Positions 5,488 to 61,563 of a stretch of DNA of 64,000 nucleotides are shown piece by piece (positions within the stretch are counted from its first letter, which is position 1; every line of letters begins with the position of its first letter). The position numbers were made by a program, and so were the translations under genes. Source of the stretch: Paracoccaceae bacterium. GTDB taxonomy: Bacteria > Pseudomonadota > Alphaproteobacteria > JAPKNN01. The DNA lies in contig JAPKNN010000001.1 of the NCBI GenBank assembly GCA_040266715.1, positions 51,034-115,033 on the forward strand. Reading direction: 5' to 3'. Below the pieces are notes generated by a model. That model saw nothing but the letters and a program-made list of their open reading frames with translations. It searched no databases and was not told the origin of the DNA.

Positions 5488-6267
5488 TTACGTGGAAATA
5501 TTTTTGAAGAGTCTAAAAAAATTTTTTGTTGTCTGAGACGCCAAAGTTTCAAGTGAAACATTTCTAATATCTGCCAATTTCTGAGCCGTGTAAACAATAT
5601 ATTGAGGCTCATTACGCTTGCTTCTGTATGGAGCTGGGGTCAAATAAGGAGCATCGGTTTCAATAAGGATTTTATCCTTGTCAATAGTTTGGGCAATATC
5701 GCGTATTTCTTGTGCTTTATTAAAGGTAATAATACCTGAAAAAGAAAACCATGCTCCTAATTCTTTACCTGTTTCAGCTAATTCTAAACCCGAGGCATAA
5801 CAATGTAATAAAATATCAAAATATTTTTTTTTTCTTTGTTCCATAAGAATGTCAGAGACATCTTTATCTGCATTTCTTGCATGAACAATAAGTGGTAAAC
5901 CCGTTTCTTGTGCTGCTTTTATGTGTGTAATAAAAACTTGTTTTTGTATATTTTTATCGTATGAATCGTAATGATAATCTAATCCTGTTTCACCTATTGC
6001 AACAATTTTTTGACCTTGCGATAAAGTTATAATTTCCTCCAACGTAATATCTTTTTCTTCTTCTGCGTAACGAGGATGCGTTCCTATTGTTGCATACACC
6101 GAATCAAATTTCCGAGAAATTTTTTGCAAAGCCTCTAAACGACGTATTTGCGTAGATATAGTCAGCATCTTAATAACACCCTTAGTATGGGCATTGTTTA
6201 CAACAGCTTCTCTATCATCGTCGAAACTATCAAAATCTAAATGGCAATGACTATCAACAAACATCAT
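5488..6267 (-). CDS. tatD: TatD-family metal-dependent hydrolase/DNase
   Basis: N-terminal DSHCHL metal-binding motif, 259 aa, conserved position next to metG. Confidence 0.85.
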   Translation of the reverse strand: MMFVDSHCHLDFDSFDDDREAVVNNAHTKGVIKMLTISTQIRRLEALQKISRKFDSVYATIGTHPRYAEEEKDITLEEIITLSQGQKIVAIGETGLDYHYDSYDKNIQKQVFITHIKAAQETGLPLIVHARNADKDVSDILMEQRKKKYFDILLHCYASGLELAETGKELGAWFSFSGIITFNKAQEIRDIAQTIDKDKILIETDAPYLTPAPYRSKRNEPQYIVYTAQKLADIRNVSLETLASQTTKNFFRLFKNIST

Positions 6268-26387: not shown

Positions 26388-26482
26388 GCCAATATAGTTA
26401 AAATAATATACAGCTCACCTTTATCATGTAGCCAATATAGTTAAAATAATATACAGCCCCCCTTTATCATGTAGCCAATATA
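26388..26482. repeat. 43-bp tandem repeat, ~2.2 copies, in the rlmH-envC spacer
   Basis: Copy 1 at 26388..26430 and copy 2 at 26431..26473 differ at 2 positions (cagctcacc vs cagcccccc); a partial third copy starts at 26474. Confidence 0.8.
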
Positions 26483-26483
26483 C

Positions 26484-26971
26484 TCATGAATTTTGATCAT
26501 GATATGGCATATTCTTTTTAATGCAAGCACTTCTATATAGCTGCTCCAAAAGCATAATTCTTACTAATTTATGAGGCCATTGTAGGCAACCAAATGCCAA
26601 ACGATAATGGGACATGTGTAATAACTCGTCAGATAATCCATCCTTCCCCCCAATTAAAAAAACCATATATCTATATCTACCATCCACAGAACCAATGAGA
26701 TTATAAAAACTATGGGTATCAATATTTTTTCCTTCTAGACACAAACCAATGATATAGGCGTCTGGAGGAATTTTTTTTTTACTTCCTCCGCTTCATACTT
26801 TAAGCGTTCTTTTACTGTACGTTTGTGTGAATGCATAATTTCATTAACAGTAATGTTTTTAATACCTAAAGCAGATTGTAATGGGCGCATTGCATCAAGG
26901 TAGTGCACACACAATGCCTCCTCAAGGCTTTTGTGTATTTTTCCAATGCATATAATACGTATATCAATCAT
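26484..26971 (-). pseudogene. rlmH: 23S rRNA (pseudouridine1915-N3)-methyltransferase RlmH, interrupted by a frameshift in an A10 homopolymer
   Basis: Track ORFs 26735..26971 (N-terminal half) and 26484..26744 (C-terminal SPOUT half, FLIGGKDGLSDE...PHKLVRIMLLEQLYRS) are both RlmH-like and lie in different frames; they join at the minus-strand A10 run (plus-strand T10 at 26771..26780). One extra A gives a continuous ~160 aa RlmH (...EAEEVKKKIPPDAYIIGLCLEGKNID...). Confidence 0.75.
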
Positions 26972-27086
26972 AGTTGGTTAGTGTATATAGACGTACTACT
27001 GTCCACCCATTATATTATTTACCTTACCTAAAATTACTTCCGATACCCCACCGATTAGGATATCAAATCTTACGCCTTCATCCATT

Positions 27087-27917
27087 TTATTCACCTGTTT
27101 GTAGAAGTTTTCCATTCTTTTTTGCCGAGCGCAAGAATAAATAAAATATTCTGAGTCCAACTACAAAATACAATGCATTGAGTAACATGCTATAAAACAG
27201 TAAATTAAAATCTAGGATATTATCTATCAATAGACTGCGTAATGCCTCAAAAACATAAGTTGGTGGCAACATATGTGCTATATAATAAAGTACATCAGGC
27301 AAAACATCGACGGGATAATACACACAAGCCAAAGGTAAAAGGGCAAAAGGAATTGTCCATGCTAACCCCTCTGCTCCCAAACCATAACGCAATATCATGC
27401 CGATGATAGGAAGACCAATAGACCAACTTGTTAAAAATATACTGGTAAAAAATAGTATAATAGCAAAACCCATTTGAAATAAATTAAAATCAAACAAAAA
27501 ATAAGCCACTATAATAACTGGAAAGAGACCCACAAAAACCTTCAATAAGCTAAACATCATAAAAGCCAATAACATTTCAATCGGCCTTAGCGGACTCAAT
27601 AACAAATGTCCTATGTTGCGAGACCACATCTCTTCTAAAAAAGAAATAGAAAAACCTAACTGCCCCCGAAAAAGAGTATCCCAAAGCATAACGGCCCCTA
27701 AAAACACGCCGCTTGTTGTAATCAACAATGACCCTGTATTTTCAATAAATATTTGTAAGTAGCCCCACATAAAAACTTGCATCAAGGGCCAATAAACAAG
27801 TTCCACAATACGCAAGCCAGAATGCTTAAATATATAATAATGACGTAACATAAGACCTGCCACACGATGTAAGCAGAATTTCCTATAAATAATTTTAGAA
27901 TTATGCATCAATATCAC
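27087..27917 (-). CDS. ABC-2 type transporter permease
   Basis: 276 aa six-TM permease with ABC-2 family layout; no ATPase partner adjacent. Confidence 0.65.
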   Translation of the reverse strand: MILMHNSKIIYRKFCLHRVAGLMLRHYYIFKHSGLRIVELVYWPLMQVFMWGYLQIFIENTGSLLITTSGVFLGAVMLWDTLFRGQLGFSISFLEEMWSRNIGHLLLSPLRPIEMLLAFMMFSLLKVFVGLFPVIIVAYFLFDFNLFQMGFAIILFFTSIFLTSWSIGLPIIGMILRYGLGAEGLAWTIPFALLPLACVYYPVDVLPDVLYYIAHMLPPTYVFEALRSLLIDNILDFNLLFYSMLLNALYFVVGLRIFYLFLRSAKKNGKLLQTGE

Positions 27918-43647: not shown

Positions 43648-43773
43648 ATGCGTGTTATAAATTCATTACGTTCTCAAAGAACGCGAGACAAAAATAATAG
43701 AATAATCCGTCGTAAGGGGCGTGTTTACGTTATAAACAAAAAAAACCCCCGCATGAAAGCACGACAGGGTTAA
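43648..43773 (+). CDS. rpmJ: 50S ribosomal protein L36 (cysteine-free B-type), absent from the ORF track
   Basis: ATG at 43648 preceded by AGGAG (43636..43640); translation [41 protein letters not shown] (41 aa) matches the L36 pattern K/R-V-x-S-L-...-RRKG-x-[15 protein letters not shown]. Confidence 0.85.
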
Positions 43774-61014: not shown

Positions 61015-61563
61015 TTATCTATTCGCTTTTCTAAATACAAAATATGGCTGTATTAAATAAACACAAGGCAGAAGTAATAAATTGAATACCAACCCCCATA
61101 TGACGCCACTCAATGAAAATGTAAACATGGTAAAAATAATCACAAGCATATATTTCACAAAGTAAAGCCAAACGACAAAAATACTTCCAAAACCCACAAA
61201 AGCGATAATGTTTTTTTGCATATTGAAACTTCCCAATAAGAAGCAGTACACATAAAACCCTATCAAAAACAAGGCTGCATGGAAACCATACGGTGCATGC
61301 GATATAATATCATATATGAAGCCCAGTGTAAAAACAAAGGATGGATGAGCCATTCTATCACATACAATTCTATTGTAAAAAAAAGATATAGGTAACAAAA
61401 AAATAGTTATTTGCTCTGAAAAAATATACAATAAAATTTGCGACAAAAAAATCAGTAGAGAATACCAAAGGGCTGACTTGCAGAAATATCCAAAGGTAAA
61501 TGTTTCATTTTTTAACTTGTTAATCATTATTTTCATCGCTTTTTGGTATAGCAACGCGAACAT
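61015..61563 (-). CDS. mreD: Rod shape-determining protein MreD
   Basis: Small polytopic membrane protein immediately downstream of mreC; true start probably internal to the track ORF, which overlaps mreC by 44 bp. Confidence 0.7.
   Translation of the reverse strand: MFALLYQKAMKIMINKLKNETFTFGYFCKSALWYSLLIFLSQILLYIFSEQITIFLLPISFFYNRIVCDRMAHPSFVFTLGFIYDIISHAPYGFHAALFLIGFYVYCFLLGSFNMQKNIIAFVGFGSIFVVWLYFVKYMLVIIFTMFTFSLSGVIWGLVFNLLLLPCVYLIQPYFVFRKANR

Follow-up and report, generated by a model that had tools for sequence, protein, structure and literature searches.

The gene rlmH is split between two minus-strand reading frames in the window, the whole 64-kb stretch of alphaproteobacterial DNA analysed here, and the frame changes at a run of ten A residues; the observation is far beyond chance. 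The locus is the gene for the 23S rRNA pseudouridine-1915 N3-methyltransferase, an activity predicted from the protein sequence. Our preferred reading, to which we give a probability of about 45%, is that a run of eleven A residues (A11) in an intact rlmH has undergone a real and recent contraction to A10, leaving an allele that is leaky by non-programmed slippage. The original prediction had taken the two open reading frames (ORFs) as the halves of RlmH in different frames, meeting at A10, and had proposed that one extra A restores a continuous protein, and both points stand. The parts of the locus are as follows.

26484..26971, minus strand: whole rlmH locus, 488 nt in the present sequence; with A11 it would have 489 nt (162 codons plus stop).
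26735..26971, minus strand: N-terminal frame, 78 aa, with its ATG at 26971, the A10 run at codons 65–67 and a TAG at 26737..26735.
26484..26792, minus strand: C-terminal frame, bounded by an in-frame TGA at 26795..26793 and open from 26792 onwards.
26780..26771, minus strand (T10 on the plus strand, 26771..26780): A10 homopolymer, the site of the frame change.

The minus strand at the junction is GAA GCG GAG GAA GTA AAA AAA AAA TTC CTC CAG. Read in the N-terminal frame, the run gives GUA AAA AAA AAA UUC, where A11 would give V-K-K-K-I, and it is followed by 11 out-of-frame codons (FLQTPISLVCV, a readthrough peptide that marks the truncated product) and then the TAG. The resulting 78-aa product, whose ORF is a called gene in a public protein collection, lacks the SAM-binding knot. 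The C-terminal frame codes for IPPDAY...PYHDQNS, including the GGxxG motif, PH, EQLYR and PYH; the peptides IPPDAYIIGLCLEGK and NIDTHSFYNLIGSVDGR lie in this frame only and would be made only with the frame restored. Its first listed start is a TTG at 26744 (ORF 26744..26484, 86 aa), from which the earlier extent of the C-terminal half (26484..26744) had been taken; the frame was correctly assigned and the extent was too short, as the frame is already open from 26792. Independent translation of the C-terminal half as part of a split enzyme was considered and rejected, because the TTG at 26744 has no Shine–Dalgarno (SD)-like sequence and lies past the conserved I68–L77 strand. The switch between frames is bounded by the conserved residues E60 in the N-terminal frame and I68/P69 in the C-terminal frame, which places the frame change within or directly beside the A run.

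Read with A11, the restored protein is 162 aa long, in line with the approximate 160 aa first proposed, and it matches the Pfam profile PF02590 (SPOUT_MTase) over positions 2–154 of 154 with 120.1 bits (E = 1.1e-34; gathering threshold, 27 bits). The N-terminal half covers profile positions 2–64 (E = 1.6e-3, by itself under the gathering threshold) and the C-terminal half positions 72–154 (E = 3.5e-23). Homologues align across the restored junction, V-K-K-K-I-P-P-D-A-Y, without an indel: K at positions 66/67 and I/P at positions 68/69 are the commonest residues in 171 of them, and B. subtilis YydA has SKISPDAHVIALAIEGK at the same place. An A8 run would also put rlmH back in frame, but only with one residue deleted, which makes A11 the parsimonious choice. 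All nine NCBIfam RlmH equivalog models score under their cutoffs (best NF000989, 126.7 bits against a cutoff of 169), as likewise do some intact neighbours, for example prephenate dehydrogenase.

Like canonical RlmH (E. coli YbeA, PDB 1NS5 and 5TWJ; B. subtilis YydA, 1TO0; S. aureus, 1VH0), the restored protein is a full-length SPOUT_MTase with the E-R-Y triad and the PH and GGxxG motifs, and its gene lies in rlmH–M23–ctpA synteny. Unlike the canonical enzymes, it has an interrupted ORF, a tail that reads PYH-D-QNS instead of PYH-R/K, no basic equivalents of R25/R26, and a full-length identity to any known homologue of only 29–37%.

The rest of the gene is in good condition. An alignment of 171 RlmH sequences has 31 columns with at least 90% conservation, and the restored protein agrees with 29 of them. 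The catalytic residues H134, E143, R147, Y157 and H158 are present (E. coli H129, E138, R142, Y152 and H153), as are the SAM-loop glycines G108/G109/G112 (E. coli G103/G104/G107), all at columns that are 93–100% conserved in the 171 homologues. E138, Y152 and H153, together with R142 and H129, have been shown to be essential in E. coli RlmH (PMC5430550). Sequence identity of RlmH is 29–35% between the window and three reference genomes and 49–59% among the references, and its intact neighbours behave in the same way (M23, 29–30% against 43–61%; RppH, 36–40% against 57%). The divergence of RlmH is therefore in proportion to that of M23 and RppH, indicating that rlmH has evolved at the pace of its lineage and not faster. 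Long-standing decay, which had already been doubted when the split was first noticed, is rejected on both grounds, the retained conserved columns and the proportionate divergence.

A fresher loss of function is a separate matter. In this rival reading rlmH is a young, functionally dead pseudogene, the deletion in the A run was the first disabling event, and any slippage product is irrelevant or inactive; we regard it as unlikely. It draws on residues outside the catalytic centre. R25, R26 and R154 of E. coli RlmH form part of a proposed helix-69-binding patch, and the window RlmH is the only one of 151 homologues without a basic residue at all three equivalent positions. At the position of R154 it has D159 (tail PYH-D), where the 171 homologues have K (81), R (79) or H (2), that is R or K in 160 of 171, and where neither D nor E is among the top counts. 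The E. coli R154A variant is inactive and binds the ribosome poorly (PMC5430550). The missing R25/R26/R154 equivalents and D159 together suggest that the enzyme may already have been impaired. The protein also has Q131 where 159 of 171 homologues have T. C150, at the position of S145, is not counted as a defect, since 15 sequences of the 171-sequence set have C there, against the statement in PMC5430550 that this residue is always S or T. The subthreshold NCBIfam equivalog scores, the altered upstream context described below and the fact that rlmH is non-essential in E. coli can be read in the same direction.

Set against a dead pseudogene is the retention of the catalytic triad, the H153/H129 equivalents and the glycine motif despite about 70% sequence replacement, which implies that purifying selection was acting until very recently. 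To deviate at two conserved columns is ordinary, 45 of the 171 homologues having at least two such deviations and E. coli itself five. Lysines 152/153 might make up for the missing R154 equivalent, and an A10 run is expected unavoidably to give some A11 transcripts.

The gene neighbourhood was compared with three Hyphomicrobiales loci, L001 (Chelatococcus composti), L002 and L003. Downstream, the order rlmH, M23 (EnvC-like), CtpA, divergent polysaccharide deacetylase and RppH is the same in all three. Upstream (window 26972..27917; L001 5589..6567; L002 5351..6433; L003 5601..6539), rsfS directly precedes rlmH in each of the three loci, often with nadD before it; the window has no rsfS there, and instead an ABC-2 permease gene, hbd and tyrA-hisC. 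The replacement of rsfS by the permease and hbd genes indicates that a rearrangement breakpoint adjoins rlmH, and this breakpoint may have taken away the native operon and promoter context of the gene. The original prediction listed a sequence error, a recent pseudogenising deletion and slippage rescue, and favoured the first and the last over long-standing decay; long-standing decay is indeed ruled out, but a fresh pseudogene is less unlikely than it implied, because basic residues and the rsfS–rlmH context have been lost. The gene for RluD, which is needed for pseudouridine-1915 methylation, is not present within the 64-kb window.

Two features of the intergenic DNA flanking rlmH were seen in passing. 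A terminator-like hairpin lies between the permease gene and rlmH (27067..27039, minus strand). Between the rlmH stop and the M23 start, 26388..26473 holds a 43-nt unit in perfect-register tandem duplication, with copies that are 95% identical (CTCACC versus CCCCCC) and have no other copy within the window; the duplication shows no significant RNA fold (z = +0.67).

Whether the A10 run is itself genuine depends on how homopolymers behave in the rest of the window, which is 35% GC and about 94% coding. It contains 45 A/T runs of at least 8 nt, about 4–5 times as many as composition predicts; 41 lie within ORFs, 33 of them as sense-strand poly(A). Homopolymers of at least 9 nt number 10 in the 64 kb, and all are sense poly(A) in coding sequences, with no poly(T) and none intergenic. 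The rlmH run is one of just two that reach 10 nt. The other is in tatD.

5824..5833, in tatD (5488..6267, minus strand): second A10 run, sense and in frame, AGA AAA AAA AAA TAT = R-K-K-K-Y.

The tatD product matches its Pfam profile over positions 1–253 of 253, and this run thus provides an internal control: intact genes in this DNA tolerate A10 tracts. All 40 other in-ORF A/T runs of at least 8 nt (8–10 nt) are in frame, and rlmH is the only broken gene among the 59 large ORFs of the window: the other 58 ORFs of at least 90 aa all have full-length domain matches in the Pfam or NCBIfam scan, which bears out the earlier description of an otherwise intact conserved block. An assembly with pervasive homopolymer errors was rejected, there being no second split gene among these 58. 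The long runs elsewhere thus reveal no systematic homopolymer problem, although a single under-call may still have occurred at one of the two longest runs.

Such an under-call is the core of another rival reading, in which the real genome, or that of most cells, has A11 and an intact rlmH, and the consensus is one base short through an assembly artefact or tract-length heterogeneity. We rate this as possible, and as less probable than a real contraction. No assembly error is commoner than a one-base under-call at the longest homopolymer class, and long-read consensus error or PCR stutter typically leaves just such a deletion of one base, here in one of the two longest homopolymers of the window. 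The gene is otherwise perfect and its neighbourhood fully intact, and the record is a draft contig of 362,384 bp from a single-genome lineage. That one of the two A10 runs is out of frame fits an under-call equally well, which weighs against the contraction reading. What speaks against an artefact is that the 40 other runs, including the tatD A10, are in frame and that AT-rich genomes of host-associated bacteria commonly carry real indels at tracts of this sort (PMC3017870). Blochmannia carries 4–8 genes per genome with real poly(A)-tract frameshifts, about 30% of whose transcripts are full-length (PMC3017870), and since the tracts of the window are similarly dense, a single genuine case within 64 kb would be unsurprising.

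No RNA family was found anywhere in the window with Rfam. An apparent gap of 738 bp between spoT and pstS holds a 41-aa ORF (43648..43773, plus strand) whose product, by eye, looks like ribosomal protein L36 (rpmJ).

On the contraction reading, AT pressure would have turned the V-K-K-K-I stretch into an in-frame A11 (GTA AAA AAA AAA ATT), from which replication slippage would then have removed one A to leave the A10 of the present consensus. Measured against the life of the gene the event would be recent, as rlmH shows no other damage. As sequenced, the DNA codes only for a 78-aa N-terminal fragment unable to bind SAM, and full-length RlmH could arise by two routes. RNA polymerase might stutter and add one A, the favoured direction of slippage on A/T runs, or the ribosome might slip –1 on A_AAA_AAA. 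Both routes would be adventitious and non-programmed, with an expected yield of roughly 10–30% by analogy with measured A10–A11 tracts. As RlmH is a dispensable enzyme, selection would hardly act on a leaky allele, which could therefore either stay in the population or revert.

These expectations follow measured systems. Insertion of a single nucleotide is the dominant transcription error in A/T runs, and its frequency grows exponentially as the run gets longer (Traverse & Ochman 2017, PMC5574713). The A11 run of Citrobacter tssM gives about 20–25% frame restoration (PMC4256274), and frameshifted genes of Buchnera aphidicola and Blochmannia are described as rescued by transcriptional slippage (Tamas et al. 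2008, as cited in PMC3017870). The rlmH case resembles those of Buchnera and Blochmannia in having a single indel in a sense A run of at least 10 nt within an otherwise intact housekeeping gene, in an AT-rich genome with many long poly(A) tracts in coding sequences, and in that one added A restores the frame; with 10 poly(A) runs of at least 9 nt in its 64 kb, the window has a density comparable to the one in Blochmannia. It differs from them in its host, an alphaproteobacterium related to Hyphomicrobiales with flagellar, repair and cell-wall genes, and in that the window is 94% coding with no second lesion. The endosymbiont cases are moreover defined by a strain-conserved frameshift together with transcript heterogeneity. 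Citrobacter rodentium tssM1 and Yersinia tssM3 (Gueguen et al. 2014, PMC4256274) have A runs of similar length with a stop a few codons downstream, and their full-length proteins likewise need an extra A in the mRNA. Both tssM length variants are functionally required, however, whereas the short rlmH product, which lacks the SAM-binding knot, has no evident role.

The sequence around the run raises the question of a dedicated signal, because the run is flanked on both sides by a perfect 7-bp inverted repeat.

26783..26789, minus strand: 5' arm GGAGGAA, also SD-like, coding for part of A-E-E.
26764..26770, minus strand: 3' arm UUCCUCC, coding for part of I-P-P.

With GGAGGAA/UUCCUCC as stimulator, a programmed and selectively maintained recoding site could fix the ratio of the 78-aa fragment to full-length RlmH, by –1 ribosomal frameshifting on A_AAA_AAA or by stimulated transcriptional slippage; of the readings considered here, we hold this to be the least probable. 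A canonical X_XXY_YYZ slippery heptamer is present in the zero frame (GU-A_AAA_AAA-AAA), an SD-like GGAGG lies 4–7 nt upstream, and the repeat hairpin is part of the minimum free energy fold (z = –2.29; 7 of 200 shuffles fold equally well). The geometry is wrong for such a role, however: the slippery site sits in the loop, so that the hairpin cannot be downstream of a decoding ribosome, and the downstream 91 nt contain no significant stimulatory RNA structure (z = –1.28; 23 of 200 shuffles fold equally well). Stimulatory SD spacing for –1 shifting, as in dnaX, is about 10–14 nt. Only 4 nt separate the end of the GGAGG element from the first possible heptamer, and 7 nt from the second, so that it is not at a stimulatory distance. 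The arms code for commonly conserved residues (E60/E62 and I68/P69/P70), and 7-nt inverted repeats of this kind occur five times in 800 nt, making the element weak evidence. The searches turned up no family of homologues in which rlmH is frameshifted, nor is there a plausible function for the 78-aa fragment. The locus therefore shares with dnaX-type –1 frameshifting a zero-frame slippery heptamer of the A_AAA_AAA/G type and an upstream SD-like element, and differs from it in having no significant stem–loop 5–9 nt downstream, the wrong SD spacing and no evidence of conservation. Between the insignificant downstream fold, the short spacing and the geometry of the repeat, a programmed frameshift with an RNA stimulator was judged unsupported.

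A more speculative reading, which we consider very improbable, makes the out-of-frame A10 a stable, selected attenuator of this isolated, symbiont-like lineage that would keep RlmH low by RNA-polymerase slippage, in an enzyme with a remodelled ribosome-binding surface (R25/R26/R154 equivalents lost, K152/K153 gained). The GGAGGAA/UUCCUCC hairpin, with the A run in its loop, would then possibly aid slippage. If true, no rRNA-modification gene would have provided a maintained recoding site before, and this one would come from outside the gammaproteobacterial insect endosymbionts that are the classic hosts.

The organism belongs to an isolated alphaproteobacterial lineage affiliated with Hyphomicrobiales. 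CtpA and Hbd are nearest to Hyphomicrobiales (Chelatococcus, Hyphomicrobiaceae, Methyloceanibacter and Parvibaculum), and the GC content of the window, 35%, compares with 64–70% in the nearest Hyphomicrobiales relatives. Apart from a self-match at 100%, the best relatives in protein collections reach 67% identity for Hbd, 59% for CtpA and about 36–37% for RlmH, and in 15 billion sequences the proteins find nothing that exceeds about 67% identity. The lineage looks host-associated or fast-evolving. Its divergence is illustrated by two genes with weak or no matches: the ABC-2 permease gene upstream of rlmH (27087..27917, minus strand; Pfam 29.2 versus 26.9 bits, no NCBIfam match) and an ORF between mreC and the PBP2 gene (61015..61563, minus strand; no Pfam match), which by its position is probably a divergent MreD. 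The organism keeps flagellar genes, MreBCD/PBP2/RodA, UvrB, RecO and SpoT genes and genes for aromatic amino-acid and purine biosynthesis, and is therefore only moderately reduced. An organism with flagella, repair and cell-wall genes is not a classic tiny-genome endosymbiont of the kind in which these frameshifts are documented, which also counts against the contraction reading.

Close relatives were sought in several collections. The word-indexed search for RlmH relatives went no higher than 37% identity; an exhaustive phmmer search with the C-terminal part against 1.84 billion representatives gave 6092 RlmH matches, the best at 46–48% identity and none below E = 1e-30. DNA pattern scans for A8–A13 between exact flanks were empty in genome and metagenome contig collections, a genome contig scan with the neighbouring M23 protein matched 66 stretches among which no relative was confirmed, and the neighbouring Hbd protein, looked up by exact match, led to no contig that encodes it. 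With no close relative in any collection searched, the length of the tract is not comparable across strains.

The split rlmH adds one more case, from an unusual host lineage, to a phenomenon that is already well described, and leaves current understanding unchallenged. For annotation, the gene is best flagged as 'frameshifted at homopolymer, possibly intact' and not recorded as a loss of rlmH. If the A10 run is real, it would extend the occurrence of poly(A)-broken but otherwise intact housekeeping genes, classically known from insect endosymbionts among the Gammaproteobacteria, to an alphaproteobacterium that branches deeply and is only moderately reduced, and it would provide a clean test case for how much of a non-essential rRNA-modification activity can be sustained by slippage alone.
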